A program made the translations under genes and the position numbers. From Eledone cirrhosa (taxonomy: Eukaryota): DNA of 64,000 nt. Below are positions 7,856 to 64,000 of this stretch, piece after piece (positions within the stretch are counted from its first letter, which is position 1; each line of letters begins with the position of its first letter). The notes under the pieces are model-generated. The model was not told where the DNA came from. It searched no databases and was given only the letters and a program-made list of their open reading frames with translations. Where the stretch lies: positions 13,091-77,090 of the forward strand of contig CAXHJY010000244.1 of NCBI GenBank assembly GCA_964016885.1, read 5' to 3'.

Positions 7856-7972
7856 AATGTTCTTAAACACTCTTTGATTGTTATTTATTAAGTATTTCGG
7901 CTCTGTATTTACTTGTTATTTTACATTGAGCTATTCTCACAATTGTAATTGGATAATATCTAATATTGCCCG

Positions 7973-8053
<81 letters not shown>

Positions 8054-8329
8054 GCGGGTAATATTAGATATTATCCAATTACAAGTGTGAGAATAGCTCA
8101 ATGTAAAATAACAAGTTTATTATCCTATTAAAATAACAAGTTATTATCCTATTAAATAAGCGACAAGAATTAATTATATCTTGCAATCATAGAATTAGAA
8201 GAACTTTCAAATATTATAAACCAAATTAATATACACCTTACACTTATATTTTACATATTATTATAATTAATTTTTTTTATTTAGTTAACCTATAATTAGT
8301 ACTTTACTACAGAGAACTAAAAGTATACA

Positions 8330-9384: not shown

Positions 9385-9424
<40 letters not shown>

Positions 9425-9429
<5 letters not shown>

Positions 9430-10186
9430 ATATGTTGAGAAGGCAACACACCAGAGAGAGATATATAGTGTGTTATCAATAATACAGGAAAAAAAACCAC
9501 CAGTGTATGGAATCTATAACCTATGAAAGGCAGACTATAGACACGATAATTAAAAATATAAATTAAAGCGTAAATAAATACCTCTATAACTATATAACAC
9601 ACGTACAAATCCAAAGATATGTTTCACCAAAAAATTTGTTGAAAGAAATGGTCTAGTCTCGGTTCATCAGCGTGTGTAAGGCCATACATTTCAGACAACA
9701 CTAAGAGAATTTTACAATTGACTGTCCAGCTACACGTGGGAGAGAGAAGTCACAGCGTGTTTAAGGGCAGTGAACCAGTGGCCTCTGAGAGACGAACTGC
9801 TAGAAAGGGCAGTCCAAAGCCACTCAGAGAAGTGTGCTCAACCAAACAGAGATAGGAAAGACTGTTATTAGGAGCGAAATATCACGATAAATTAACGGAG
9901 GCATAGGCCGTCGTTATTCCCTGTAAATAATGTGCTCAAAGGGGAAGAGATCCTGAGCCCTTTAAAATATAATATGTTGAGAAGGCAACACACCAGAGAG
10001 AGATATATAGGTTAAAGATTCCATACACTGGTGGTTTTTTTCCCTGTATTATTGATAACACACTATATATCTCTCTCTGGTGTGTTGCCTTCTCAACATA
10101 TTATATTTTAAAGGGCTCAGGATCTCTTCCCCTTTCAGCACATTATTTACAGGGAATAACGACGGCCTATGCCTCCGTTAATTTAT

Positions 10187-10192
<6 letters not shown>
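9425..10192 (-). mobile_element. Partial-tandem (~542-bp unit) element with inverted end segment and hammerhead-like motif; Penelope pseudo-LTR or retrozyme-like
   Basis: Direct repeat ATGTTGAGAAGGCAACACACCAGAGAGAG at 9432 and 9974. Segment 10011-10192 is an inverted copy spanning the repeat junction. TA arrays on both sides. Confidence 0.7.
9611..9676 (-). ncRNA. Hammerhead-like motif (stem I degenerate)
   Basis: Minus strand: CTGATGA ACC...GGT GAAA CATA TC. Confidence 0.55.
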
Positions 10193-10232
<40 letters not shown>

Positions 10233-10334
10233 CTGGTTACACAACAGTTAGTTCACCATACCGAGAACAATTGTTTCATCTTAGCGGATCCCCAGCTCGT
10301 AATGGACATGGTTATACGGAACAGGAAGGACAAT

Positions 10335-10383
10335 GCTTCCTGATGACTTCTCCCGAATGAAACAGTTCTAGTCCTGTAGAAGC
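10335..10383 (+). ncRNA. Type I hammerhead ribozyme, all three stems
   Basis: GCTTC CTGATGA CTTC-tccc-GAAT GAAA CAG-ttctagtc-CTG TA GAAGC. Stem I 5 bp, stem III 3 bp, GUA cleavage triplet. The 10.1-11.1 pair is a C-U mismatch. Confidence 0.8.
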
Positions 10384-10486
10384 CTTTCTATATTAAATAT
10401 TTTATTTATACTCTGCTTTGTATTGAGTACTTTACTTACTTGGTTAGCCCCGATTGAACCTGGGATAAACTTGTATATATATATAT

Positions 10487-11080
10487 ATGGTGGCTGCCAA
10501 CTAGTTTTCGAGTACGGCCACTACTTTATATCCATGTAGGAGAACCCCTACCGATGCGCTGAACGAGTGTGACTTTTTAGTCCAGCCAGCGACTTGAAAA
10601 CTCTGGTACAAACACTACACTTGTGACAATTATTGACACATAGTGCTGGGCCCATGGTACCATGTGACGACAAGTGCAGAGAGATCTCCAGATATAAAGC
10701 AATGCCTGTGCCGTGAAGCTTTTATAGTGAGCAAAGGCACTGCACAAAGCCAGTCCCACTCTCTTCACCAAGATGATATTTACCAAAAAGAAGAACAAGT
10801 CAACATCATTGGATACCATCAGGGTTGCAGGTGTTATATCAGAGTTTTCCTTCTCCTAGACAAAGGCTAAGGGGTCATCTCTCCCGGTGATTTTGGATGG
10901 CCATTGACTCTGAAGAGCTCCTTTGCCCTTTGACAGGTTTTGTTTTTAGTCCTGCAGGATGTCCAAAGTCACCCTCCTCACCAAGAAAACTTGGTGGGGT
11001 TGCCAGTTTAGTCGCCAACGACCCGACCATGGGACAGGTTGTACTGGGATACATGTTACCAGTAACACCAACTGGTGACC
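10487..11080 (-). mobile_element. ~594-bp non-coding dispersed retroposon (RTE-related SINE-like), copy 1
   Basis: Near-identical to 34664-35257 (+) and 63748-64000. Contains TCTAGGAGAAGGAAAACTCTGA, recalled as typical of RTE 5' UTRs. The 3' end runs into TA/TATG repeats. Confidence 0.8.
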
Positions 11081-12089: not shown

Positions 12090-12150
<61 letters not shown>

Positions 12151-12220
12151 ACATATCATATGTTGATTTAAAACTGAACTATCCACAAGTGTTTTTTAGC
12201 CTTCATATCATGTCCTCCTG

Positions 12221-12287
12221 TTTTATCTGATGAAAACACAAATATTATTGCATGATGATGTTTGTTTTTGAAATGCGCATAATCAAA
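12221..12287 (+). ncRNA. Type I hammerhead ribozyme-like motif in a ~175-bp TA-embedded element (12148-12325)
   Basis: TTTTAT CTGATGA AAACACAAAT...GTTTGTTTTT GAAA TGCGCA TA ATCAAA. Homolog at 48283-48353 (-). Confidence 0.8.
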
Positions 12288-12646
12288 TACATGGAACTAC
12301 TTTAACCATCTTTTGATCTTATATATTATGTATACTCCAGTCCTACAAACTGTAGAGTGCTTCTTATCCGATATCTGCATTGCTTTATTGTACTACAATA
12401 AAACTCACCTCCTACATATATATAAATATATATATAAATATATTTAATACATTAACAGAGAAAGCTTAAAGCTTCAAGCTATACTCTGACTGGCTTCCAT
12501 CTCACTCAACAAACATTAGGATATACCTTAGTATAATCCCAATTTTACGTTTGGGGTGCTAACTATATGTATTTTGCGGATAGCCAGTTGCATTATTTTA
12601 TATGAGACATAATTATATATATATAAATATATATATATATATAAAT

Positions 12647-12683
<37 letters not shown>

Positions 12684-12846
12684 AATATATATATATATAA
12701 ATATGTATATATAAAAATATATAAATATGAAAAAAAAAATATCAAAAACAACCAACTCATCAATGTCTTACCATTTGATTTCCACCAATCAGTATCCATT
12801 ATTTTACTGGCCTTGTGTCATAAGCAGAAACATTTTCACTATTAGA

Positions 12847-12986
12847 ATAGAGTTATGGCCCTTTACGTTCTGAGTTCAAATCCCACCGAGGTTAACTTTG
12901 CCTTTCATTCTTGCGGGGTCGATAAAATAAAGTACCAGTAATAGACTGGGGTATTTGCTGGCCTTGTGCCTAAAGTAGGAACAATT
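12847..12986 (+). mobile_element. tRNA-derived SINE family 1 (5'-truncated)
   Basis: B-box GAGTTCAAATCC; body TTTGCCTTTCAT...GGGGTCGATAAAATAAAGTACCAGT. Confidence 0.9.
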
Positions 12987-13042
12987 ATTATAATCTAATC
13001 GAAACATTTGTCACCATCAAAGTAACTAATCATAATAATAAT

Positions 13043-16799: not shown

Positions 16800-16975
16800 T
16801 TCAGTATCAGTAGAGGGTCGGACGCCATGCTTTCCAGCATAGTTACGTCCCTTTACGATCTGAGTTCAAATCCCGCCGAGGTTGACTTTGCCTTTCATCC
16901 TTACGGGGTCGATAAAATAAAGTACCAGTAATGCACTGGGTAATTGCTGGCCTTGTGCCAAAAGTAGAAACAATT
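16800..16975 (+). mobile_element. SINE family 1
   Basis: Same SINE body and B-box. Confidence 0.9.
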
Positions 16976-16990
16976 AATTTCTCTATTTTC

Positions 16991-17169: not shown

Positions 17170-17235
17170 ATTTTATTATACATATTTCAGAGGTACGTGA
17201 ATCAGGTTCAGCAGTACGTCCTCATCAGATAAAAT
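17170..17235 (-). ncRNA. Type I hammerhead ribozyme-like motif
   Basis: Minus strand: ATTTTAT CTGATGA GGACGTAC...GTACCTCT GAAA TATGTA TA ATAAAAT. 7-bp stem I; stem II has 7 of 8 positions paired. Confidence 0.75.
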
Positions 17236-17302: not shown

Positions 17303-17412
17303 TGAGAAAATTCAACATTTATACCCGAATAGTGAGAACATGGGAAAACGAGAAAATTCTATTACGTTTTCCCATGTTCTCACTATTAGGGTATAAATGT
17401 TGAGTTTTCTCA
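17303..17412. repeat. ~110-bp near-perfect inverted repeat upstream of the minus-strand hammerhead
   Basis: TGAGAAAATTCAACATTTATACCC..ATAGTGAGAACATGGGAAAACG / CGTTTTCCCATGTTCTCACTAT..GGGTATAAATGTTGAGTTTTCTCA. Confidence 0.9.
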
Positions 17413-17496
17413 AAATCGCATTAGTGATTTGATTATGTGCCTGCTTTATACACATGTATATTCAACCTACTTATCTGTTTTAATAATGGCTTAGAA

Positions 17497-17910
17497 AATT
17501 GGCAGTATTGGTAGAGGGTCGGACGCTATGCTTTGCAGCATAGAGTTACGGCCCTTTACGGTCTGAGTTCAAATCCCGTCGTGGTTAACTTTGCATTTCA
17601 TCGTTACGGGGTCGATAAAATAAAGTACCAGTAATGTACTGGGGTCGATTTAATCGACTTTCCCCACCTACAAAATTGCTGGCCTTGTGCGTATGCAAGA
17701 AATTATTATTATCATTATTTGGTGGTGGATTGGCAGTATCGGTAGAGGGTCGGACGCCATGCTTTGCAGCAAAGAGTTACGGCCCTTTATGGTCTGAGTT
17801 CAATTCCTGCCGTGGTCAACTTTGCCTTTCATACTTACGGGGTCGATAAAATAAAGTACCAGTAATACACTGGGATAATTGCTGGCCTTGTGCCAAAAGT
17901 AGAAACAATT
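17497..17910 (+). mobile_element. Two tandem SINE family 1 copies (17497-17705, 17721-17910)
   Basis: Same SINE head, B-box and body. Confidence 0.9.
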
Positions 17911-18069
17911 ATTTATCTATCTGCCTACCTGTCCATCGGTTGTGGGTATGAAAATACACTCTTGTGTGTGAATACGGAAGAGCCGAACTCCCACTGTCAT
18001 CGCCTCCATCTCTCTCGTCCTCCCCATCATTCTGTGTGCTGAGCAAATGGGGTCACACGTGCTGGTCTC

Positions 18070-19595: not shown

Positions 19596-19825
19596 TCAAC
19601 TCTATACAAACAACATCACAGAATAATTGTTAGCAAATCTATGCGTGGACAAACAATGTAGCCACCTAGCGGTGAATGCCGGTGCATTAATGGTGGTTTG
19701 ATCACGTGATAGACATCCGGGCTCCAGACGTGATCCGAAGCCCTCGGGGGCGGTGGGAGGCCATCGAGGATGGGTCAAAGTCCTTATATCCAGACAAATT
19801 TAACTCTTTAGCATTTAAACCCCTG

Positions 19826-22800
19826 ATGACCATAGTATCAAAGCTGTGGTCTCTCAATTCGGAGATTCTTTCCTGAGACATTAACCACATGACCATAGTA
19901 TCAGAGCTGTGGTCTCTCAATTCGGAGATTCTTTCCTGAGACATTCTATCCACATGACCATAGGTATCAGAGCTGTGATCTCTCAATCCAGAGATTCTTT
20001 CCTGAGACATTCTAAACACATGACCATAGTATCAGAACAGTGATATCTCAATCCAGAGGTTCTTTCCTGAGACATTCTAACCACATGACCATAGTATCAG
20101 AGCTGTGATCTCTCAATCCAGAGATTCTTTCCTGAGACATTCTAACCACATGACCATAGGTATCAGAGCTGTGATCTCTCAATCCAGAGATTCTTTCCTG
20201 AGACATTCTAAACACATGACCATAGTATCAGAACAGTGATCTCTCAATCCAGAGATTCTTTCCTGAGACATTCTATCCACATGACCATAGTATCAGAGCT
20301 GTGATCTCTCAATCCAGAGATTCTTTCCTGAGACATTCTAAACACATGACCATAGTATCAGAGCTGTGGTCTCTCAATTCGGAGATTCTTTCCTGAGACA
20401 TTCTAAACACATGACCATAGTATCAGAGCTGTGATCTCTCAATTCGGAGATTCTTTCCTGAGACATTCTATCCACATGACCATAGTATCAGAGCTGTGAT
20501 CTCTCAATCCAGAGATTCTTTCCTGAGACATTCTAACCACATGACCATAGGTATCAGAGCTGTGATCTCTCAATCCAGAGATTCTTTCCTGAGACATTCT
20601 AACCACATGACCATAGTATCAGAACAGTGATCTCTCAATCCAGAGATTCTTTATTGAGACATTCTAACCACATGACCATAGTATCAGAACAGTGATCTCT
20701 CAATCCAGAGATTCTTACCTGAGACATTCTAACCACATGACCATAGTATCAGAGCTGTGATCTCTCAATCCAGAGATTCTTTCCTGAGACATTCTAACCA
20801 CATGACCATAGGTATCAGAGCTGTGATCTCTCAATCCAGAGATTCTTTCCTGAGACATTCTAACCACATGACCATAGTATCAGAACAGTGATCTCTCAAT
20901 CCAGAGATTCTTTATTGAGACATTCTAAACACATGACCATAGTATCAGAACAGTGATCTCTCAATCCAGAGATTCTTTCTTGAGACATTCTAACCGCATG
21001 ACCATAGTATCAGAGCTGTGATCTCTCAATCCAGAGATTCTTTCCTGAGACATTCTAACCACATGACCATAGTATCAGAGCTGTGGTCTCTCAATTCGGA
21101 GATTCTTTCCTGAGACATTCTTACCACATGACCATAGTATCAGAACAGTGATCTCTCAATCCAGAGATTCTTTCTTGAGACATTCTAACCACATGACCAT
21201 AGAATCAGAACAGTGATCTCTCAATCCAGAGATTCTTTCCTGAGACATTCTAACCACATGACCATAGTATCAGAGCTGTGATCTCTTAATCCAGAGATTC
21301 TTTCCTGAGACATTCTAACCACATGACCATAGTATCAGAACAGTGATCTCTCAATCCAGAGATTCTTTCTTGAGACATTCTAAACACATGACCATAGTAT
21401 CAGAACAGTGATCTCTCAATCCAGAGATTCTTTCTTGAGACATTCTAAACACATGACCATAGTATCAGAACAGTGATCTCTCAATCCAGAGATTCTTTCC
21501 TGAGACATCTAACCACATGACCATAGTATCAGAACAGTGATCTCTCAATCCAGAGATTCTTTCTTGAGACATTCTAAACACATGACCATAGTGTCAGAAC
21601 AGTGATCTCTCAATCCAGAGATTCTTTCTTGAGACATTCTAAACACATGACCATAGTATCAGAACAGTGATCTCTCAATCCAGAGATTCTTTCCTGAGAC
21701 ATCTAACCACATGACCATAGTATCAGAACTGTGATCTCTCAATCCAGAGATACTTTCTTGAGACATTCTAACCACATGACCATAGTATCAGAACAGTGAT
21801 CGCCCAATCCAGAGATTCTTTCTTGAGACATTCTAACCACATGACCATAGTATCAGAACAGTGATCTCTCAATCCAGAGATTCTTTCTTGAGACATTCTA
21901 ACCACATGACCATAGTATCAGAACAGTGATCGCCCAATCCAGAGATTCTTTCTTGAGACATTCTAACCACATAACCATAGTATCAGAACAGTGATCTCCC
22001 ACCCAGAGATACTTTCTTGAGACATTCTAACCACATGACCATAGTATCAGAACAGTGATCTCTCAATCCAGAGATTCTTTCTTGAGACATTCTAACCACA
22101 TGACCATAGTATCAGAACAGTGATCTCTCAATCCAGAGATTCTTTCCTGAGACATTCTAACCACATGACCATAGTATCAGAACAGTGATCTCTCAATCCA
22201 GAGATTCTTTCTTGAGACATTCTAAACACATGACCATAGTATCAGAACAGTGATCTCTCAATCCAGAGATTCTTTCTTGAGACATTCTAACCGCATGACC
22301 ATAGTATCAGAGCTGTGATCTCTCAATCCAGAGATTCTTTCCTGAGACATTCTAACCATATGACCATAGTATCAGAGCTGTGATCTCTCAATCCAGAGAT
22401 TCTTTCTTGAGACATTCTAACCGCATGACCATAGTATCAGAGCTGTGATCTCTCAATCCAGAGATTCTTTCCTGAGACATTCTAACCATATGACCATAGT
22501 ATCAGAGCTGTGATCTCTCAATCCAGAGATTCTTTCTTGAGACATTCTAACCGCATGACCATAGTATCAGAGCTGTGATATCTCAATCCAGAGATTCTTT
22601 CCTGAGACATTCTAACCACATGACCATAGTATCAGAACTGTGATCTCTCAATCCAGAGATACTTCCCTGAGACATTCTAACCACATGACCATAGTATCAG
22701 AGCTGTGATCTCTCAATCCAGATATTCTTTCCTGAGACATTCTAACCACATGACCATAGTATCAGAACAGTGATCTCTCAATCCAGAGATTCTTTCTTGA

Positions 22801-23337
22801 GACATTCTAAACACATGACCATAGTATCAGAACAGTGATCTCTCAATCCAGAGATTCTTTCCTGAGACATTTTACCGACATGACCATAGTATCAGAGCTG
22901 TGATCTCTCAATCCAGAGATTCTTTCTTGAGACATTCTAACCACATGACCATAGTATCAGAACAGTGATCTCTCAATCCAGGGATTCTTTCTTGAGACAT
23001 TCTAACCACATGACCATAGTATTAGAGCTTTGATCTCTCAATCCAGAGATTCTTTCCTGAGACATTCTAACCACAGGACCATAGTATCAGAACAGTGATT
23101 TCTCAATCCAGAGATTCTTTCTTCAGACATTCTACCCACATGACCATAGTATCAGAACAGTGATCTTTCAATCCAGAGATTCTTTCCTGAGACATTCTAA
23201 CCACAGGACCATAGTATCAGAACAGTGATTTCTCAATCCAGAGATTCTTTCTTCAGACATTCTAACCACAGGACCATAGTATCAGAGCTGTGATCTCTCA
23301 ATCCAGAGATTCTTTCCTGAGACGTTTTAACCACATG
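19826..23337. repeat. 65-bp satellite array, ~54 copies
   Basis: Unit ATGACCATAGTATCAGA(GC/AC)(T/A)GTGATCTCTCAATCCAGAGATTCTTTC(C/T)TGAGACATTCTAACCAC. Period 65 (e.g. 22101 to 22166). Confidence 0.97.
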
Positions 23338-23614
23338 ATCAGTTTCAATGAGAGATCTCCATTCAGAACTGTTGCAAGTTGTGTCACGATCCATCCATGC
23401 CCTCACCACGGGACAGCCCCTCCCCCCTCTCCTCTGGGGGTGTCAGGTGTTCCTCGACAGATTTGAGATTCTTATCTATTCTGATAACAATAACAAAGAA
23501 ATCTTTTCCAATCGACGCGAGGAATATAAATATAAAAACGAAATATGGTTTCAAAAATAGCGTCCTGGTGTGTCTGTGTATGTGTCTGTGTGTATATATG
23601 TGTGTGTCTGTGTG

Positions 23615-32932: not shown

Positions 32933-32976
<44 letters not shown>

Positions 32977-32979
<3 letters not shown>

Positions 32980-33258
32980 AAAATGTTTGACCCCGATGGC
33001 AGAGCTCAAGCCGTTTCGACGGGTATTTCTGGACTTAGAAATAGCCGTCGAAACGGCTTGAGCTCTGCCGTCGGGGTCAAACATTTTCCTATTACCCACT
33101 CTACTACCCTAAGTATTGAGTACTCTGGTGCGTTATGGTCCATCTGGTTCCTTACCAGTCTTCCTTCATTATATATATATATATCGATATATGTTCGATT
33201 AGATATATATATATCAATATATGTTCGATTAGATATATATATATCGATATATATTCGA

Positions 33259-33302
<44 letters not shown>

Positions 33303-33495
33303 GAAGGAGGTGTGGTAAGGAACCAGATGGACCATAACGCACCAAAGTACTCAATACTTAGGGTAGTAGAGTGGGTAATAGGAACGAGTAGGACGCCGAC
33401 GGCTGAGCTCAAGCCGTTTCGACGGCTAATTCTGGACTAAAAAAAAAAAAAAAAAAAAAAACGGCTTGAGCTCAGCCGTCGGGGTCCTACTCGTT

Positions 33496-33498
<3 letters not shown>
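32977..33498. mobile_element. Two tail-to-tail copies of fold-back family B (32977-33170, 33300-33498)
   Basis: Palindrome GAGCTCAAGCCGTTTCGACGG...CCGTCGAAACGGCTTGAGCTC plus the tail ACCCTAAGTATTGAGTACT..GGTGCGTTATGGTCCA. Confidence 0.85.
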
Positions 33499-33540
<42 letters not shown>

Positions 33541-34482: not shown

Positions 34483-34660
34483 AATTGTTTCTACGTTAGG
34501 CACAAGGCCAGCAATTACCCAGTGCATTACTAGTACTTTATTCTATCGACCCCGTAAGGATGAAAGGCAAAGTCAACCTCGGCGGGATTTGAACTCAGAT
34601 CGTAAAGGGACGTAACTATGCTGGAAAGCATGGCGTCCGACCCTCTACCGATACTGCCAA
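34483..34660 (-). mobile_element. SINE family 1
   Basis: Reverse complement of the SINE body. Confidence 0.9.
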
Positions 34661-34663
34661 AAT

Positions 34664-35257
34664 GGTCACCAGTTGGTGCTACTGGTTACATGTATCCCAG
34701 TACAACCTGTCTAATGGTCGGGTCGTTGGCGACTAAACTGGCAACCCCACCAAGGTTTCTTGGTGAGGAGGGTGACTTTGCACATCTTGCAGGACTAAAA
34801 ACAAAACCTGTCAAAGGGAAAAGGAGCTCTTGAGAGTCAATGGCCATCCAAAAGCACCGGGAGAGATGACCCCTTAGCCTTTGTCTAGGAGAAGGAAAAC
34901 TCTGATATAACACCTGCAACCCTGATGGTATCCAATGATGTTGACTTGTTCTTCTTTTTGGTAAATATCATCTTGGTGAAGAGAGTGGGACTGGCTTTGT
35001 GCAGTGCCTTTGCTCACTATAAAAGCTTCACGGCGCAGGCATTGCTTTATATCTGGAGATCTCTCTGCACTTGTCATCACATGATACCATGGGCCCAGCA
35101 CTATGTGTCAATAATTGTCACAAGTGTAGTGTTTGTACCAGAGTTTTCAAGACGCTGGCTGGACTAAAAAATCACACTCGTTCAGCGCATCGGTAGGGGT
35201 TCTCCTACATGGATATAAAGTAGTGGCTGTACTCGAAAACGAGTTGACAGCCACCAT
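34664..35257 (+). mobile_element. ~594-bp RTE-related non-coding retroposon, copy 2
   Basis: Reverse complement of 10487-11080, with a (TATG)n tail. Confidence 0.8.
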
Positions 35258-35685
35258 GTATGTATGTACGTATGTATGATATCGACCAGTTCTCCCTTTC
35301 GAGTAGTGTTTTCGATGCCCAGAGAGTGGGATTAGTCGAGTGCAAGGCCTTTCTCCACTTAAAAAACCTTCAAAGCACTGGCAATGTTTGTTCAGGATCT
35401 GTTACAGGTTCGTGTGACTGGCCGTAGCCTAAAAGTACACCAAACTCTATAATCTGACAAACAATTGCAATCCTCTTAGCAGAGTTTGCAGCCATCATGT
35501 ACTTATGTAAATGCATTGGATGTTCAGAGAGTGGGATTGGCTCCGTGCAAAGCCTTTACTCACTTAAACAAGCTTCAAGCACAGGCACCGCTTGACATGT
35601 GACATTTTTTGCGAACACCCTAACCACAAAGCCACGCGTCTTCACAGTACCTAAGATACACATTCAGTTCCATACCTATTATTAG

Positions 35686-35870
35686 TGGGCAGATTGGCAG
35701 TATCGGTAGAAGGTCGGACGCCATGCTTTGTAGCATAGAGTTATGGCCCTTTATAGTTTGAGTTCAAATGCCACCGAGGTCAACTTTGCCTTTCATCCTT
35801 ACGGGGTCGATAAAATAAAGTAGCAGTAATACCTGGGTAATTGCTGGTCTTGTGCCAAAAGTAGAAACAT
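35686..35870 (+). mobile_element. SINE family 1
   Basis: Head, B-box and body present. Confidence 0.9.
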
Positions 35871-36476: not shown

Positions 36477-37709
36477 ATGATGACAAAGATGATGATGATG
36501 GAAAGCAATCAGACCCCTACTTTTGAAAGTGTTTTCGGTTGTCAAACGTTTGATTACACTTTTGAAAATATATCCTTGGGCAATTTATCGAACTCACATC
36601 TCGATGCAGAGAACTGTTTGCTCGATACGGTGCAAATGGATGTCGGAGATAAGATCTACGCTTTCTCAACGCCAGTGATTTTCGCCATGGGTATACTAGG
36701 TAATTCTGTATCACTAAAGATATTCTTGTCGAAAAACTTCCGGCGTCAAGCTGGTGGTGTGTATTTAGCGTCGCTGTCTTGTGCGGACATTTTCGCCTTA
36801 GTTTTCTACGTGATGACGGAATGGCTGAAAAAAATACCTCTCTTTTTAATGTCCAGTCGTAAGATACCGGTCTTGGATACAGAAGGAATGTGCCAAATGA
36901 TACAGTTTCTATCGTACACCTTCCGTTTTCTCTCTTCTTGGTTGGTCGTTATATTCACAGTCGAAAGATACATTGGAGTGTGTCATCCCTTTAAAAGACT
37001 TGAATGGTGCACGACAAAGACGGCACGGAGGAGTATAGGGGGACTGGTTATAGTTTCGCTGGCCATTAACTCTTATAAGCCGGCCCTAACTAAAGTGTAT
37101 CGGCTTCACGGAGGTTTAACGAAGTGTACTGGAAATTTGGAATACAGATATCTTTCGTTTATTTTGGACAGTGTATACGCAGTCTCTATTACTTTCGTTC
37201 CGTTTGTGTTTATATTCCTGCTGAATATTCTAATTATTCGTGCTTTAGTACGGCTAAAACGAAGACAAAAGACCAACCAAGTAAAAGCAAAGGAAGCAGT
37301 CGGTAGGACAGACTTTACATTGTTATTGCTGATGATATCTTTCTGTTTCATAGCCTTCAAACTTCCGTTTTTTGTTACTTGGTGCCAACAGTTCTTCTTT
37401 TCCATAAAACTAGAGGGGAGTGACTTAGACGAAATCAACGACCACAACAGACTTTTAGTGATGAAAAAAGCTCTCAACATATCCAGAATTATATTCTACA
37501 TGAGCTACGTAACAAATTTCTTTCTCTACAGTTTCGTTGGCTCTTCTTTCCGTCTTGAACTTAAGCGACTGTTGTCCTGTCGCCACAAGAGAGCTCGCAC
37601 CAATACTTGGACTCCACAACGAACATATTTGCGCTCCGATATCAGCCATGTTGAATCTTTTCACCGCAACACTTCTGCTGCTAAGAACCAGAGTATAGAT
37701 GAGGTCTGA
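36477..37709 (+). CDS. Intronless rhodopsin-like (class A) GPCR, FMRFamide-receptor-like peptide receptor group
   Basis: 410 aa from the first ATG (the ORF track starts at TTG 36474; several in-frame Mets follow). Seven hydrophobic segments: TM1 GN, TM2 LSCAD, TM3 Cys and FTVERY followed by HPF, TM5 VPF, TM6 FKLP, TM7 NFFLY. N-terminal sequons NQT, NIS, NLS. AATAAA at 37777. Confidence 0.95.
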   Translation: MMTKMMMMESNQTPTFESVFGCQTFDYTFENISLGNLSNSHLDAENCLLDTVQMDVGDKIYAFSTPVIFAMGILGNSVSLKIFLSKNFRRQAGGVYLASLSCADIFALVFYVMTEWLKKIPLFLMSSRKIPVLDTEGMCQMIQFLSYTFRFLSSWLVVIFTVERYIGVCHPFKRLEWCTTKTARRSIGGLVIVSLAINSYKPALTKVYRLHGGLTKCTGNLEYRYLSFILDSVYAVSITFVPFVFIFLLNILIIRALVRLKRRQKTNQVKAKEAVGRTDFTLLLLMISFCFIAFKLPFFVTWCQQFFFSIKLEGSDLDEINDHNRLLVMKKALNISRIIFYMSYVTNFFLYSFVGSSFRLELKRLLSCRHKRARTNTWTPQRTYLRSDISHVESFHRNTSAAKNQSIDEV

Positions 37710-40551: not shown

Positions 40552-40830
40552 GTGAGGTGTCCTACACGAGGGAAAGTATAAAGAACAAAAGATGAAATCG
40601 AAAATGCAACTGGAGTCTTATTTTTTAAAAAATACATATATTTATTTGGTTCCTTTACCGGTTTCACAGTTCTTCTGCTTTTCAGATGTGAGAAAAACCA
40701 CAGACCCTCCATTATCAACTCTACTTTTGAAAAGCAGAAGAACTGCGAAACTGGTAAAGGAACCAAAAAAATATATATATTTTTTTTAAATAAGACTCCA
40801 GTTGCATTTTCGATTTCATCTTTTTTTCTA
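40545..40830. mobile_element. Fold-back family A, copy 2 (left arm centrally deleted)
   Basis: Homologous to 1376-1710 and 50382-50743. Confidence 0.85.
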
Positions 40831-40843
40831 TATATATATATAC

Positions 40844-40914
<71 letters not shown>

Positions 40915-40931
40915 AATATATATAAATATAT

Positions 40932-40969
<38 letters not shown>

Positions 40970-40970
40970 G

Positions 40971-41007
<37 letters not shown>

Positions 41008-46636: not shown

Positions 46637-46760
<124 letters not shown>

Positions 46761-46798
46761 TATCAAGTAAGAATATTTTCGAAACAGCGAGTGGGCTT

Positions 46799-46940
46799 TG
46801 AAATTATTAGAAATGTAAGCTATCGCCGTATTTTGACTAAAGAAATTAAAGAAATTATTTAGCCTGATAGTGGGGTTATAATAATTTCTTTAATTTCTTT
46901 AGTCAAAATACGGTGATAGCTTACATTTCTAATAATTTCA
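46799..46940. repeat. ~140-bp fold-back island between TA arrays
   Basis: TGAAATTATTAGAAATGTAAGCTATC.CCGTATTTTGACTAAAGAAATTAAAGAAATTATT and its reverse complement. Confidence 0.9.
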
Positions 46941-48220: not shown

Positions 48221-48253
<33 letters not shown>

Positions 48254-48282
48254 GATCAAAAGATGGTTAAAAGAGTTCCATG

Positions 48283-48353
48283 TATTTTATTATGCGCATT
48301 TCAAAAACAAATATCATCATGCGATGACATTTGTGTTTTCGTCAGATAAAATA
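48283..48353 (-). ncRNA. Type I hammerhead ribozyme (element 48252-48425)
   Basis: Minus strand: TATTTTAT CTGACGA AAACACAAATGTCATC-gcat-GATGATATTTGTTTTT GAAA TGCGCA TA ATAAAATA. Perfect 8-bp stem I. Confidence 0.85.
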
Positions 48354-48432
48354 GGGAGACATGATATGAAGGTTAAAAAACACTTGTGAATAGTGCAGTT
48401 TTAAATCAACATATGATATGTTGATATATATG

Positions 48433-48529: not shown

Positions 48530-48580
48530 GTATATATATATATACCGTCCGTCCCCTCAATCTATCTTATTTCTCATTCT

Positions 48581-48619
48581 TTCTTCTGATGAAGGACTAG
48601 CGGGTCCGAAATGTTAAGA
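48581..48619 (+). ncRNA. Minimal hammerhead-like motif (element 48545-48710)
   Basis: TCTT CTGATGA A GGAC-tagcgg-GTCC GAAA TG TT AAGA. Confidence 0.65.
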
Positions 48620-48701
48620 CCCTCTTCCTGCTATATCAAACGTCAAACTAATATATTCTTTCCATATACTGTACCGATTGTGTTGTTATTTCTGTTTTCC
48701 T

Positions 48702-48749
<48 letters not shown>

Positions 48750-49129: not shown

Positions 49130-49275
49130 CTGCGCAGTATAGAGTTGCGTTCTGAGTTCAAATCCCGCTTTGCCTGAGGTTAGCTTTGTCTTTCATCCTT
49201 ACGGGGTCGATAAAATAAAGTACCAGTAATACACTGAGATAATTTCTGGCCTTGTGCCTAAAGTAGAAACAATTA
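49130..49275 (+). mobile_element. SINE family 1
   Basis: B-box and body present. Confidence 0.88.
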
Positions 49276-49380
49276 TTATTATTACTAGTAGTAGTAGTAG
49301 TAATAGTAGTAGTAGTAGTAGTACAGATTAAAAGTTTAAGCAAAGAAGCGGGATCTTCCGACATATTTTTAAAAGTTACG

Positions 49381-49427
<47 letters not shown>

Positions 49428-49431
<4 letters not shown>

Positions 49432-49862
49432 ACAGGGAGAAATAGACGATTATTAGGAAGAAACATTTCTTTTTTTTCCTTTTTTGTCTCTCTCTCTCTC
49501 TTTTCTGGGTTAGAAAATGATTAAAACGAAATGTTGTACTTTGTATGAAGTGTTAAAGTATTAGTTTATTTATTTATTATTTAACAATGGCATTTATTTA
49601 TCTATTTATCTATTTATATATTTATCTATTTATATATTTATATATTAATTTATAGACAATAATTAAATATATAAATAGATAAATAGATAAATAAATGCCA
49701 TTGTTAAATAATAAATAAATCAACTAATACCTTAACACATCACACAAAGTAAAATATTTCGTTTTAATCATTTTCTAACCCAGAAAAACGAGAGAGAGAA
49801 ACAAAAAAGGAAAAAAAGATATTTTTATTCTTCCTAATAATCGTCTATTTCTCCCTGTTTTT
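49428..49862. repeat. ~435-bp imperfect fold-back island between TA arrays
   Basis: AAAACAGGGAGAAATAGACGATTATTAGGAAGAA ... TTCTTCCTAATAATCGTCTATTTCTCCCTGTTTT; arms pair along the whole length. Confidence 0.92.
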
Positions 49863-50381: not shown

Positions 50382-50743
50382 TTAGAAAGTGAGGTTTTTT
50401 TACAAAATGAAAAATAACCGAGGTGTCCTACACGAATGAAAGTATAAAGAAAAAAAGATGAAATCGAAAATGCAACTGGAGTCTTATTTTTTTTTTAAAT
50501 ATATATATTTATTTGGTTCCTTTACCGGTTTCGCAGTTCTTCTGCTTTTCAAAAGTAGAGTTGAGGTGGAGGGTCTGTGGTTTTTCTCACATCTGATGTG
50601 AGAAAAACCACAGACCCTCCATCTCAACTCTACTTTTGAAAAGCAGAAGAACTGCGAAACCGGTAAAGGAACCAAATAAATATATATATATTTTTTTTAA
50701 ATAAGACTGCAGTTGCATTTTCGATATCATCTTTTTTTCTTTA
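50382..50743. mobile_element. Fold-back family A, copy 3 (complete palindrome)
   Basis: Centre TTTTTCTCACATC-T-GATGTGAGAAAAA, with arms of ~150 bp. Confidence 0.88.
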
Positions 50744-50760
50744 TATATATATCTATATAT

Positions 50761-51615: not shown

Positions 51616-51648
51616 AACGAGCGAGCGTGTGTGCGTATATATATACAT

Positions 51649-51850
51649 AACGAAGGAAATGTGGTAAGGAACCAGGTGGACCATAACGCACCAAAGTACT
51701 CAATACTTAGGGTAGTAGAGTGGGTAATAGGAACGAGTAGGACCCCGACGGCTGAGCTCAAGCCGTTTCGACGGCTAATTCTGGACATTTTAGTGCAGAA
51801 TTAGCCGTCGAAACGGCTTGAGCTCAGCCGTCGGGGTCCTACTCGTTCCT
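51649..51850 (-). mobile_element. Fold-back family B copy
   Basis: Homologous to 33300-33498. Confidence 0.85.
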
Positions 51851-51959
51851 ATATATATATATATATATGTATGTAAAAGGTAAACAGAAATAACAACACA
51901 ATCGGTACAGTATATGGAAGGTATATATTAGGTTAACGCTTGATATAGCAGGAAGAGGA

Positions 51960-51995
51960 TCTTAACGTTTCGGACGCTAGTCCTTTATCAGAAGA
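51960..51995 (-). ncRNA. Minimal hammerhead-like motif (element 51870-52030)
   Basis: Minus strand: TCTT CTGATAA A GGAC-tagc-GTCC GAAA CG TT AAGA, with a G8-to-A core change. Confidence 0.55.
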
Positions 51996-52593
51996 AAGAA
52001 TGAGAAATAAAATAGATTAAGGGGACAGGCTGGGTGGAATTCGAAAAAATGTCTTTAGATAAAAATAATAGGTCCATTCATGTTGACATTTCTTGCAAAA
52101 TTGTTGGTGCTGGCGTTTTATATATATATATATATTAGAAAAGGGAAGTAAGGATTCTATACAAAACAGTGAATATAGAGAAATGGTGAAGTTGGAAATA
52201 GCACGGGAGATATATTTAAGGGTCTGTTTTTCTATGTTGATTCGTAAAAGTGACACTATTGAAAAGATAACTACGGGGGTCGATAAAATAAAGTACCAGT
52301 AATACACTGGGTAATTGCTCGCCTTGTGCCAAAAGTAGAAACAATTATTTTAAAAAATGAGAGGGACAAAAATGTTTATAATGTATATAAAGTATATGAA
52401 GAATTACCGGTTTCGATGTATATATATCTATATATGTATATGTATGTGTGTATATATTTATGTATATGTGCATATATATAACAAAGGAATTGTGGTAAGG
52501 AACCAGATGGACCATAACGCCCCAGAGTACTCAATACTTAGGGTAGTAGACTGGGAAATAGGAAAAAGTATGACCCCGACGGCAGAGCTCAAG

Positions 52594-52638
<45 letters not shown>

Positions 52639-52871
52639 GTGTGTATGTGTGAGCGTCCGACTTTGTTTCCTCATAACTTTCCTTAACAATATATATTTTG
52701 TTAAGATATAGCAATTGGAAAGACCAACGGAAACATTGTTTCCTCGGTCCGATTTGACGAGCTCCGCCCCACTTAAGCGAATCAAGTCTGGGATCTTCAC
52801 GATCGACTGTCGATATATTCGAAGACTTAGATTAAAATTTTGATAATTTTAATCATTGGATTGGCAGTAAT

Positions 52872-53055
52872 GGCGGTGGATTGGCAGTAGCGGGTCGAAC
52901 GCCACGCTTTTCAGCATAGATTTACGGCCCTTTACAATCTGAGTTCAATTCCTGCCGAGGTTAACTTTGCCTTTCATCCTTACGAGGTCGATAAAATAAA
53001 GTACCAGTAATACACTGGGGTAATTGCTGACCTTGTGCCAAAAGTAGAAACAATT
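52872..53055 (+). mobile_element. SINE family 1 (plus 3' fragment at 52272-52346)
   Basis: Head GGCGGTGGATTGGCAGTA, B-box and body. Confidence 0.9.
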
Positions 53056-53843
53056 ATTATTACTATTTTTTTTTTTTTTTTGGTGTTGTATTTTTTAATT
53101 GATTGTCATTAACCTTCTGGAAATTACCGGAAGTTATCTGTGATCTTGAAACTCTGGATTTCCAGACGATGATTCCAATTCTCACGCATACATTAATAAT
53201 TATTCCTGCAGATTTTTTTTGTTTTGTTTAAACGTGTTCGTTAACCTTTTATTCTTACATTCTCTATAATCTTAATATGTTAATTCCGGTGCTCCACCAG
53301 ATCTTATTTATTTTACCGCTCTCGAAAGAATAAAACACAAAACCAAATTATCTATATATGTATATACAGAAAAATATGTGGAACACTCATCGTCGAGTCT
53401 GACGAAAGTCCAATACACAATATATAAATAAAAACATGCATGTTTTTTTCTTTGTTATCGGTTGTTTTGTTGTTGTTTTTTGACGAGGGATAGGGAATAT
53501 ATTTTGGTTTGTTTTTTGTATAAAATTCAGGAATCCAAGAGACTGGAAGATGTTTTTACTTACCAAAATATGTAGTTGTTGTTTTTTTTTTTTTGGGGGG
53601 GGGGGGGGTTATAAGGTTTTTGAAATGAAATCGTGTGTTGAAACAGATGTTGTTGTTATATTTGGGGAGGGTGATATTGTTATAATATTGCCACAAAAAA
53701 GTAGTAACACAAAAGAACTTTGAGAAATTATATTTTTATTTATATATTTTTAACTGTTGGTCAATCAATGATAAACATTGATTGCCAGCTAAATTATTTA
53801 TAGAAATATAAAAAAAATATCTTCTTCTTGTGCTATTACTGTA

Positions 53844-55174: not shown

Positions 55175-55177
<3 letters not shown>

Positions 55178-55342
55178 AAAGAGAGTGTGGTAAGATACCA
55201 GGTGGACCATAACGCAACAGAGTACTCAATGCTTCGGGTATTAGAGTTGGTAATAGGAAAAGATTCAGGACCCCGATGGCTGAGCTCCGGCCGTTTCGAC
55301 AGCTAGATTCGAACGGTTCGGATCTAGCTATCGAAACGGCCG
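55175..55342 (-). mobile_element. Fold-back family B, variant subfamily
   Basis: Tail homology plus palindrome CGGCCGTTTCGACAGCTAGAT...ATCTAGCTATCGAAACGGCCG. Confidence 0.8.
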
Positions 55343-55665
55343 AATATCAGAGAAAGAAATCTAAGAGAAAAAATAAAAAAAATGTTTTAATAAATAAAAC
55401 AATTAAGCTATTCCTAGAGCTATTAGTAATATTTAGGGTCGACTTCTGGTCATTATTGAAAGTCTCTGGATTTCGCAAAATACATATTTTTTATTGGAGA
55501 AGGTAAAATATTTTTCCGCAAAAATTTGATTGCACTGTTTTGTTTCCACTTATGTATTTTTCGAAAATGTTATTTATTCATTATAAAAATTAAATGATAG
55601 CATTCTATATGTAGGTGGGCCCCCTTCATCTCCTGGCAACCAATATTTTTAGACCCAGTCCACCA

Positions 55666-55709
<44 letters not shown>

Positions 55710-55711
<2 letters not shown>

Positions 55712-55865
55712 CGAAGGAAATGTAGTAAGGAACCAGGTGGACCATAACGCACCAAAGTACTCAATACTTAGGGTAGTAGAGTGGGTAATAGGAACAAATA
55801 AGACCCCGACGTACAGAATTAGCCGTCGAAACGGCTTGAGCTCAGCCGTCGGGGTCTTATTTGTT

Positions 55866-55868
<3 letters not shown>
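55710..55868 (-). mobile_element. Fold-back family B copy (one arm partly deleted)
   Basis: Homologous to 51649-51850. Confidence 0.85.
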
Positions 55869-55906
<38 letters not shown>

Positions 55907-60374: not shown

Positions 60375-60376
<2 letters not shown>

Positions 60377-60553
60377 CGAGGGAAGTGTGGTAAGGATCCA
60401 GGTGGACCATAACGCACCAGAGTACGCGATGCTTAGGGTAGTAGAGTGGGTAATAGGAAAATAGTCAAGACCCTGACGGCTGAGCTCCGACCGTTTCAGA
60501 TCTAGCTATTGAAACGGTCGGAGCTCAGCCGTCGGGGTCCTGACTCTTTTCCT
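60375..60553 (-). mobile_element. Fold-back family B, variant subfamily
   Basis: Tail homology; palindrome GACGGCTGAGCTCCGACCGTTTCA...TGAAACGGTCGGAGCTCAGCCGTC. Confidence 0.82.
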
Positions 60554-60629
60554 ATATATAGCACTCTTTTTTCCTGGACCTTTCCTATATAGACCACAGG
60601 AAAAAAGAGTTGTCTATATAGGAAAGGTC

Positions 60630-63440
60630 CAGGATAACAAGGTGTCGAGATGTTTCTTAAAGACATCCACCTCCACGTCATGCAAGTCTCTCAGATGCCT
60701 CGGCAGCCTGTTGAAGAGTTGAGGGCCCTTGAATCCCAGGCTATTGCAATACCTGCTCCTTATTCTAGATGTGGAAGACGGGATCTTTGGCACCACACAG
60801 TGACGTCCTGTTCGACGGTTGGTCCAGCTCCCAATGCCAAAGTTTGGTGCTAATCCCTCCAGGATTTTCCACATGTAGATCACTGCGTATCTCTCCCGTC
60901 TTCGCTCCAAGGAGTAGAGGTTCAGTTCCTTTAGCCTCTCCCAGTAGCTTGTCTCCCTCATCTTGGCAATCCTCTTGGTGTAGCTTCGCTGGATTGCCTC
61001 AAGCTCCGTGGTTAGTTTGACACTATGGGGTGACCACAACTGGGAGCAGTAGTCCAGGCGGCTTAGGACAAAAGTCCTCCACAGTGTCAACATGGTGTCT
61101 CGATCTCTTGTCCGGAAAGTCCTCAAGATCCAGCCAGCGAGTCGTCTGCATGTTGTCGCCACTTTCATGATGTGTGAAGAAAAAGATGCATCATCGCTCA
61201 TGTCTATACCCAGGTCTCGTATCGATTTTGACACGGGGATATCGGTCCCTCCTGGTCCTGTGTAGCTGTGTTCCACTATATTTGTGTTTGCAGGTTTGTA
61301 TTGTCGGGCTTGGAATTTGCCAGCATTAAACTGCATGTTGTTTTCTTCCGCCCATCTGTATATGGCATCCAGATCCTGCTGTAAAAGGGCAGCGTCAGCC
61401 GGGTTTTTGATTGCCTGTGCTACCTTAGTGTCATCAGCATAGCTAGTGAGGGATGTTGTTGCATGCACCACAGAGGGCATGTCCGAGAGAGCCACCAAAA
61501 ACAGTAGTGGTCCCAGGACTGTCCCCTGGGGCACCCCACTTGTTATCGGTGTTTCCCTCGAGAGGGCCCCATTTGCTGCGACTGCCTGGCTTCTGTCCCT
61601 TAGGAAGCCATGCAGCCACTCACCTACTTTTCCAGTTATGCCGAGTCCGTGTAGTTTGTGACATATCATTCCGTGGTCGACCTTGTCAAAGGCCTTCGCA
61701 AAGTCAAGATATATCACGTCCACATGTGAGCTGTCTAGTAGTTGTCTCAGTACCCAGTCGTAGTGATGTAGCAGCTGTGTAAGACAGCTTCTTCTTGGGC
61801 GGAAGCCATGTTGCGTGCTAGTCAGGCGGTCATTTTCTTCGAGGAAAGTGATTAGTTTCTTTCTGACGACTCGCTCCATGACCTTACTGATATGCGACGT
61901 CAGGGTGACTGACCTATAGTTCTTGGCCTCCGCTCTACTACCTTCTTTATGGATAGGGCATATTGTGCCTTCTTTCAGCTCCCTGGGTAGTACACCGCTA
62001 ACCAAGGAGCTTCTGAAGGGCATCTTCAGTGGAGTTGCTAAGGCCCGCTTACATATTTTTAGGAGAACTACTGGGAATCCATCAGGTCCAGCAGCCGAGT
62101 CTGTTCTAATTTCATCAATGGCGTACACCACATCCTCCTCCATTATGTCTATGTGGTTGATGGTTGCCATTTCTTGATGTAGTGTTGTGGCATCAAAGAA
62201 CTCCTCTGGCTTCGTTATTTGCATGTGCCTCAGTGGACATGTGAAGACACTTTTGTACTGTTCGTTCAGTATTTCACATATCTCTTGGGGATTTTCGGTT
62301 AATGAACCGTCCGTGTGGAAGAGTGGCCCAATCTTGCAGTGTACTGAGGCAGTTTCTTTTGCAAATTTAAAGAAGGCCTTAGGGTTTGTTTTAATCTTTT
62401 CTATGGCCCTGTTCTCTTTCTTTGCCCTCTTATTCTCATGTGAAAGTTTGAGTGCAATCTCGGTGTCAAGTAGTGCACGTTTCAAATAGGATTCCTTCTT
62501 GTTTTTGTTTTGTTGACTATTCAACTGGTTTGAGAGTTTAGTTCTACGTCTCAAGGATTTTCCTATCTCTGGGAATAAGATTTTTGTGTCTGTTTGCCTC
62601 TTTCTCCGGGACACACTTTTTGCATATGGTGTGTATCGTTGTCATGAAGTGTTGAAATTGTGTGTTAGTGTCTTGTGTGGCGGTGTTTTCACTCCATGTT
62701 TGCTTCCGGATTTCACTCTTAATCTTTTTCCAGTTAGCCTTGTAGAAGTTAAGGTTGGATAGCGTCCCGGAGCTTCTTGGCGGTTTTGTCTCTGTTGGTT
62801 CTCTTGGACCACATATCATTAGCTCTACTAAGTTATGATCCGAGAGAATTGTTGGTGTCACCTTTACATTGTGGATGAGCACTTCGTTGTTTGTAAAACA
62901 GAGGTCCAGGACATTTTCGCCTCTTGTTGGGAGGAGTATTGCTTGCTCCATGAACAGCCTGTGTGTGAGGGCCAGCAGGGATTCCGTCTGTCTCTGTTCT
63001 ATTGACGTCATTCCAGGGAGGAGGTGGCCCTCAGGCCATTTGACCTTTGGTAGGTTGAAGTCTCCCAGCAGTAGGATGTTGAGACCCTGGTCTAGTTTGT
63101 CAAGGACCTCATCTATCCTACTTAGGCTATCCTCAAATTTACCCTCATGACTGGGGGCATCGGGCGGCCGATATGTGACACATATTACTGTCTGTAGTTG
63201 CTTCATATGTATTATCAGTGTGTCACAGACTGAGTTTGAATGTGTCAACAGTACAATTGGTGTGACATCTTCACGGATATACAGAGCAACCCCACCATGA
63301 GTTCTCTCCTTCCTGTCCGAACGAAATACAGTATATTTCGGTATATGTATTTCTGCATCTGCTATACTGCTTGTCGGGTGCGGTTCGGTTAGTGCCATGC
63401 ATAGTGCTTGATTGCTTATGGCTAAGTCTCCCAAGTATGT
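60630..63440 (-). mobile_element. CR1/L2-group LINE ORF2 (APE endonuclease + reverse transcriptase), one frameshift, both ends disrupted
   Basis: APE motifs RSDR..GGVALY, YRPP, GDFN, LDL, SDH (62560-63440). RT motifs QHGFR, YLDFAKAFDKVDH, GVPQGTVLGPLLF, YADD and C-terminal SLERRRER (ORF 60614-62614). Frameshift near 62553. Confidence 0.95.
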
Positions 63441-63557
63441 ACATATATATATATACATATATATATATATACATGTATATAGTATATATATATACATGTA
63501 TATATAGTATATATACATACATATATATATATATACATACATATATATATATATTAC

Positions 63558-63590
<33 letters not shown>

Positions 63591-63747
63591 CATACATATA
63601 TATATATACATACATATATATATATATACATATATACATACATACATATATATATATATACATATATACAATACATACATATATATATACATATAATATA
63701 TATATATACATATATACATACATACATATATATATACATATATATAT

Positions 63748-64000
63748 ATGGTGGCTGCCAACTCGTTTTCGAGTACGGCCACTACTTTATATCCATGTAG
63801 GAGAACCCCTACCGATGCGCTGAACGAGTGTGACTTTTTAGTCCAGCCAGCGACTTGAAAACTCTGGTACAAACACTACACTTGTGACAATTATTGACAC
63901 ATAGTGCTGGGCCCATGGTAGCATGTGACGACAAGTGCAGAGAGATCTCCAGATATAAAGCAATGCCTGTGCCGTGAAGCTTTTATAGTGAGCAAAGGCA
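63748..64000 (-). mobile_element. ~594-bp RTE-related retroposon, copy 3 (3' part; runs off window)
   Basis: Near-identical to 10487-10740. Its TA tail (63441-63747) abuts the LINE endonuclease region. Confidence 0.85.

Follow-up and report, generated by a model that had tools for sequence, protein, structure and literature searches.

The insert at positions 9424-10194 raises the question of what kind of RNA it was copied from. The initial annotation proposed a multimeric or circular template of about 542 nucleotides, as for retrozymes. The locus was analyzed here within the window, defined as the whole 64,000-nucleotide stretch of Eledone cirrhosa DNA (64 kb). The insert is probably one solo copy of a retrozyme-like, non-autonomous derivative of a Penelope-like element (PLE). 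Its unit would be 542 nucleotides long, and a PLE protein acting in trans would have inserted it by priming at two sites on an RNA longer than one unit. The likelihood given in words to this reading and to its rivals is the authors' judgement.

In the literature consulted, the link between animal retrozymes and PLEs is drawn from shared ribozymes, co-occurrence, and pseudo-LTR phylogeny. A PLE origin of animal retrozymes, with units tied to PLE pseudo-LTRs, is argued in bioRxiv 10.64898/2026.07.22.740005, where the species listed are vertebrates, three insects, and a coral. Circular templates have been proposed before for both PLEs and retrozymes. A title-level search of the open-licence literature returned no paper on cephalopod retrozymes. 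An ORF-less 542-nucleotide unit with a full PLE integration footprint would tie retrozymes to PLEs by mechanism.

Structure of the Insert

The window is eukaryotic and AT-rich, and (TA)n tracts are abundant in it. The insert is a 770-base non-coding sequence with a (TA)n tract on each side. The left tract (9389-9424) is the putative primer for the direct cDNA, and identity to the repeat starts at 9424. The right tract (10191-10229) is the putative primer for the inverted cDNA, and its first four nucleotides match the element. Because both flanks are (TA)n, a target-site duplication (criterion, more than 4 bp) cannot be read.

The direct copy (9424-10010, minus strand) is 587 nucleotides in length, or 1.08 units. 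Its 3' end at 9424 is the putative RT start site 1, and it is 5'-truncated at 10010. The RNA sense of this copy is the minus strand, taken from the orientation of the ribozyme. The putative unit is 542 nucleotides long with a GC content of 38.6%. It is delimited by an exact 45-nucleotide direct repeat in which 9424-9468 equals 9966-10010 at an offset of 542. The spacing and terminal repeat in the initial annotation agree with this, as its anchors at 9432 and 9974 sit in register of the repeat.

The downstream repeat copy (9424-9468, minus) corresponds to the 3' end of the pseudo-LTR and is predicted to form a 10-bp hairpin immediately ahead of start site 1. It belongs to the 180-nucleotide segment 3' of the predicted cut (9424-9603, minus), where the unit is more strongly structured than anywhere else (z about -3.8 to -3.9). 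In order of coordinates, the hammerhead motif (9597-9677, minus) is followed by a non-coding body of 201 nucleotides (9678-9878, minus), which is U-rich, has 46% GC, and is present only in the direct copy. Next is a tail (9879-9965, minus), defined here as the 83-87 nucleotides between putative RT start site 1 (9966, equivalent to 9424) and start site 2 (9879-9883). The upstream repeat copy (9966-10010, minus) is truncated and makes the insert a partial tandem.

The inverted copy (10007-10194, plus strand) is 188 nucleotides in length and is also 5'-truncated. It contains 101 nucleotides of the pseudo-LTR end (equal to 9524-9424) and 87 nucleotides of tail. An inverted segment had been noted at 10011-10192; the segment is present, but the extent differs by a 4-nucleotide overlap at each end. 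One overlap is ATAG (10007-10010), a microhomology where the direct and inverted copies join. The other is ATAT, common to the end of the inverted copy and the right TA tract.

The order first described for the inverted arm, from the end of the unit through the repeat into sequence that follows the first repeat copy, is borne out: read as tail, repeat, and 9469-9524, the arm is identical at 185 of 188 positions. The arm is identical to 9879-9965 at 86 of 87 positions (24 of 87 in the other register), to the 45-nucleotide repeat at 45 of 45, and to 9469-9524 at 54 of 56 (12 of 56 in the other register). It aligns end to end on a doubled unit (score 361) and over 132 nucleotides only on the linear locus (score 259).

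In RNA sense, the order of the locus is inverted arm, truncated repeat (45 nucleotides), tail (87 nucleotides), body (201 nucleotides), ribozyme, 180-nucleotide segment, and (TA)n. Both outer ends are therefore 3' ends in RNA sense (9424 and 9879-9883), and the truncated 5' ends of the two copies meet head to head.

A palindrome of this kind could be an assembly or sequencing chimera, and assembly is described as difficult where (TA)n tracts enclose long inverted repeats (PMC8557442). Against this, the two arms are not identical (3 differences in 188 positions), the 52-nucleotide loop comes from about 500 nucleotides away, and an equal layout recurs in several unrelated families. A chimera is highly improbable.

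If transcribed across, the region 9879-10194 would form a long hairpin with 132-bp arms and a predicted energy of -248 kcal/mol. Such a hairpin is a possible double-stranded-RNA substrate.

Integration Footprint

In its layout, the insert corresponds to the published PLE footprint. According to PMC8557442, PLE insertions form partial tandems, carry at their 5' end an inverted copy that is itself 5'-truncated, have a tail of 30-40 bp on one side, and favour (TA)n; most are 5'-truncated, and the Octopus entries include Hydra and Naiad families that target (TA)n. The PLE protein studied in PMC11167929 cuts AT-rich DNA and extends both strands, starting at two sites inside the RNA, the spacing of which equals the tail. 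In that work, the main substrate in vitro was RNA that had not been processed, and ribozyme cleavage was unnecessary.

The preferred mechanism would begin with transcription of a donor made of head-to-tail 542-nucleotide units. A PLE protein acting in trans, of Hydra, Naiad, or Neptune type, would then nick both (TA)n strands. From one end, cDNA synthesis would be primed at site 1; from the other, it would be primed at site 2, which lies 83-87 nucleotides further 3'. The first cDNA would be 587 nucleotides long and the second 188. The two would anneal through a 4-nucleotide overlap, followed by repair. Two cDNAs joined in this way, through a few shared nucleotides, are reminiscent of twin priming in L1. 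A title-level literature search found no paper on twin-priming-like joining in PLEs.

The same 4-nucleotide overlaps, together with a near-perfect 132-bp hairpin, are predicted by a DNA fold-back. Under that scheme the nascent strand was re-primed on itself at ATAG, copied 9520-9424, switched within the 45-nucleotide repeat to its second copy, and returned to (TA)n at 9879. Three switches would be required. In addition, the tails found on one arm only in neighbouring inserts cannot arise in this way, so two-site priming already operates in the genome. We regard the fold-back as very unlikely.

Hammerhead Motif

The minus-strand hammerhead-like core reported at first proved to be a complete type I motif with core and three stems. 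Stem I (9677-9671/9603-9597) has 7 bp. The core consists of CUGAUGA at 9670-9664 and GAAA at 9625-9622. Stem II (9663-9657/9632-9626) has seven pairs, four of which are G-U, and stem-loop II is 38 nucleotides long. Stem III (9622-9616/9611-9605) contains one U-U mismatch. By the descriptor, stems I, II, and III have 7, 7, and 2 consecutive pairs.

The descriptor was matched by 0 of 20,000 dinucleotide shuffles at hit-matched thresholds, which were chosen after the hit was seen. At relaxed thresholds of 5/2/1, it was matched by 1 of 20,000. The hammerhead is real as a sequence motif.

The cut is predicted after GUA, at 9604/9603. A UC near 9616 had been put forward as the cut and circle junction. 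This UC (9617-9616) lies inside stem III, and it is ruled out as the cut site, since the bases beyond it cannot pair as stem I. Because the fold-predicted cut follows GUA, the circle junction, if any, would be 9604/9603.

Stem I has a predicted pairing probability of about 0.6-0.9, whereas the values are 0.02 in stem II and 0.11-0.16 in stem III. The active hammerhead fold is predicted to lie 1 kcal/mol above the minimum. As stems II and III are weakly paired in the prediction, this copy of the ribozyme may cleave poorly.

An Rfam scan of the window returned no family at gathering score. Between 9300 and 10500 there were 13 Rfam E-value matches, with no hammerhead family among them. MicroRNA-precursor matches at 9947-10126 were rejected; they fall under their gathering scores and only mirror the palindrome.

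No second ribozyme is present at the locus. With a single ribozyme, the locus is unable to excise or release a monomer circle itself, and any circle would derive from another locus.

Coding Capacity

The longest stop-free frame within the unit is 70 aa, in agreement with the initial annotation that no ORF is present. No frame reached the Pfam cut-off among 20 from the insert and its right neighbour, and two frames compared with the protein collection had no homologue. In the window, 154 non-repetitive frames were collected after the LINE and GPCR regions had been excluded. Among the 150 longest of these 154 frames there was no RT or GIY-YIG match, and the same search of the 64-kb window yielded no ORF of a driver PLE. 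A sigma-70 promoter scan gave background level; this model is of bacterial type and is not meaningful for a eukaryote.

The missing ORF is weak evidence, because the 208 nucleotides of non-coding sequence upstream of the core fall in the range of autonomous PLE UTRs. From stop codon to ribozyme core, the UTR is about 150-180 nucleotides in two Hydra consensi and about 400 nucleotides in Naiad_Esco (PMC8557442 supplement), lengths that were counted by eye from printed consensus lines.

Template of the Insertion

The direct copy passes through an intact ribozyme site and continues 45 nucleotides into the next unit. Its sequence suggests a template longer than one unit, either tandem or circular. 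A single linear RNA serving both cDNAs would be at least 643 nucleotides (1.19 units) with the ribozyme uncut. The initial proposal of a multimer or circle stands insofar as a template that is ORF-less, hammerhead-bearing, and longer than one unit is supported, provided the donor had the 9878/9879 junction; the argument drawn from the inverted arm fails. The inverted arm requires a linear RNA with at least 101 nucleotides of upstream repeat, then the tail. It is no evidence for a circle, because repeat and tail are colinear on a linear PLE RNA that starts in the upstream pseudo-LTR. The label retrozyme-like is a fair one.

The 542-nucleotide unit depends on contiguity across 9878/9879, which is observed in a single junction that coincides with start site 2. 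This is the point at which a truncated autonomous PLE, the main rival, offers a possible, if doubtful, explanation. There would then be no true 542-nucleotide unit: the PLE was truncated at 9878, RT restarted at site 2 and added the tail and 45 nucleotides, and the inverted copy also came from site 2. On this account, the period would be the outcome of a single event, and the locus would be no more than what is left of a pseudo-LTR, like numerous other ordinary PLE remnants in the genome.

Consistent with this explanation, the inverted copy ends exactly at 9879, the body is seen once, and PLE insertions, most of them 5'-truncated, form partial tandems (PMC8557442). The 208 non-coding nucleotides upstream of the core lie within the PLE 3' UTR range by the same by-eye counts. 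The folding signal likewise resides in the 180 nucleotides 3' of the ribozyme (z -3.8) and not in the body and ribozyme (z -0.6). However, an extra template jump is required. A head-to-tail restart occurs in 0 of the 12 other segments with an inverted arm, a small and mostly short sample, and no C-terminal PLE remnant was detected in the insert frames by Pfam or protein search, which are weak tests here.

In the preferred reading, a linear tandem and a circle remain to be weighed as the form of the more-than-unit RNA. A 542-nucleotide circle accounts for the sequence equally well, and the sequence cannot separate the two. Mismatches of 1/132 against 2/56 (Fisher p = 0.21) are uninformative on one versus two repeat copies and on circle versus tandem. 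Folded in silico, the circle has a z of -2.9 (0 of 100 shuffles). Folding gives the circle no support, because the linear monomer is lower in energy (-132.3 kcal/mol, compared with -126.4 kcal/mol for the circle) and the 180-nucleotide 3' segment is the source of the signal.

An uncleaved linear tandem or partial-tandem transcript of at least 643 nucleotides is somewhat likelier than a ligated circle. That the insert is the footprint of a ribozyme-cut, ligated circular RNA of 542 nucleotides, on which a PLE enzyme primed twice and the cDNA crossed the GUA junction and made more than one turn, is unlikely. If true, it would represent a cephalopod retrozyme and structural evidence for Penelope machinery retrotransposing retrozyme circles, with an unusually long tail (about 85 nucleotides). 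The coordinates that a test would need are exact, namely 9424 and 9879 for the two start sites and 9604/9603 for the junction of a circle.

No other copy of the element was found in the 64-kb window, and none among phage records. When 11 other inserts were compared with the element, the scores of 10 stayed inside their shuffled range; the AT-rich insert at 49428-49861 reached 55, where shuffles gave at most 45.

Comparison with Known Elements

The insert is like the metazoan non-LTR retrozymes (PMC7229834; bioRxiv 10.64898/2026.07.22.740005) in having a type I hammerhead, no ORF, a GC content below 50%, a unit of a few hundred nucleotides, a genomic copy of more than one unit, and presumed mobilisation by PLEs. 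The 542-nucleotide unit is longer than the 150-450 bp given in PMC7229834 and within the 51-972 bp given in bioRxiv 10.64898/2026.07.22.740005. An 'active' tandem, as the latter uses the term, has at least two complete hammerheads, whereas the locus here has 1.08 units and one ribozyme. The insert also adds an inverted arm and tail, and the word 'inverted' is absent from the main text of PMC7229834. Plant LTR retrozymes carry a type III hammerhead in each of two LTRs; here there is one type I hammerhead, and it lies outside the repeat.

With EN+ PLE insertions (PMC8557442; Poseidon PAc, PMC11167929), the insert shares a partial tandem or pseudo-LTR, a 5'-truncated copy that lies inverted at the 5' end, a tail on one side, a ribozyme upstream of two internal start sites, and an AT-rich target. 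The period of the EN+ PLEs described is 2-4 kb, in contrast to 542 nucleotides here. Their tail is 30-40 nucleotides, in contrast to 83-87 nucleotides here and 42-81 nucleotides in neighbouring families of the window. An autonomous EN+ PLE has a single ORF with a telomerase-like RT and a GIY-YIG endonuclease, and the insert has neither. By its layout, the element behaves like a PLE insertion, and by its content it looks like a solo non-LTR retrozyme.

Hydra-clade PLEs (for example, Hydra-1_Obim) and cephalopod Naiads are described from Octopus hosts with (TA)n targets, and the insert likewise lies between (TA)n tracts in an octopod. The stem III and GUA pattern is like that of several Hydra ribozymes in File S2 of PMC8557442, by eye only. 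The 38-nucleotide core spacer is within the 35-50 nucleotides of the 'HHR_half_core' class of some Naiads. The Hydra clade is defined by RWK and DKT motifs together with an endonuclease that lacks CCHH, and the locus has no protein for clade assignment. None of six short motifs of the insert was found in the PMC8557442 supplement. An 8-nucleotide word common to the element and the 5' end of Hydra-1_Obim, noticed by eye, was dropped as chance-level.

Non-autonomous members of Chlamys, for example MRC1 (PMC8557442), are alike in being ORF-less PLE derivatives with pseudo-LTRs and head-to-tail insertions. Unlike the insert, Chlamys elements are green algal, and canonical hammerheads are absent from most of those described there.

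Related Footprints in the Window

The combination of inverted arm and tail is common in the window. An inverted arm was found in 13 of 50 TA-bounded, mostly non-repetitive segments, a count that takes in the insert under study, the cores of two family A inserts, and three or four doubtful cases. The one-sided extra sequence is 77-81 nucleotides in four segments, 42 nucleotides in one, and about 57-59 nucleotides in family A. An internal direct repeat is present in 3 of the 50 segments and is combined with an inverted arm only in the insert under study. None of the other 12 inverted-arm segments has one (a small, mostly short sample), and they give no sign that re-initiation is frequent.

Six hammerhead matches were found in the window, whereas 300 shuffles of the 31,024 unmasked bases gave 0.047 on average. 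All six motifs lie 38-179 nucleotides upstream of a TA-type tract. Read-through of an intact ribozyme site is thus the rule here and is not a mark of a circle.

The adjoining insert (10230-10472, plus) is unrelated, TA-bounded, and has its own type I hammerhead motif with the core at 10340. Its predicted cut is after 10378, 95 nucleotides ahead of the TA tract, and its core and stem III are Hydra-clade-like by eye.

Further hammerhead-like motifs just upstream of TA tracts are located at 17228 (minus), 48345 (minus), 12149-12319, 48092 (plus), 48586 (plus), 51876-52026, and 33705 (plus). Several have long core spacers of 33-36 nucleotides, as in the motif described above. Homology links the sequences at 12149-12319 and 51876-52026 to those at 48253-48423 and 48551-48703.

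A (TA)n insert family of 120-200 nucleotides is present at 32975-33169, 33301-33500, 51646-51852, 55176-55350, 55711-55870, 60376-60555, and 52478-52593. Most members have an inverted arm with a one-sided tail of about 77 nucleotides, and a 3' hammerhead half may be present (by eye). Palindromic family A (1376-1712 and 50386-50745) has a tail of about 57-59 nucleotides and a possible third copy near 40582-40971. Other palindromic inserts are found at 17303-17497, 46757-46939, 49428-49861, and 7911-8116. Among these there are one-sided extra sequences of about 85 and 42 nucleotides, one insert has none, and one is a TA-centred palindrome.

Other Features of the Window

An uninterrupted 403-aa class A GPCR frame is present at 36498-37709 (plus). 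Its identity is 93% to a protein of O. bimaculoides that bears the name growth hormone secretagogue receptor type 1 and 88% to an Argonauta hians protein, which identifies the host as an octopod.

A LINE with AP endonuclease and RT domains occupies 60614-64000 (minus) and has a TA-rich interruption near 63480-63790. Partial copies are located at 10489-11080 and 34664-35255. The upstream part of the LINE encodes a sequence that matches C2H2 zinc fingers, and this part is repeated at 97-99% identity.

A dispersed repeat of 150-190 nucleotides, possibly a SINE, has about nine copies with 85-97% identity (12843-12994, 16802-16986, 17498-17645, 17714-17914, 34486-34660, 35678-35869, 49145-49284, 52276-52353, and 52871-53065). 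A tandem array extends over 3.5 kb at 19805-23360, with a period of about 65 nucleotides and copies that are 92-94% identical.
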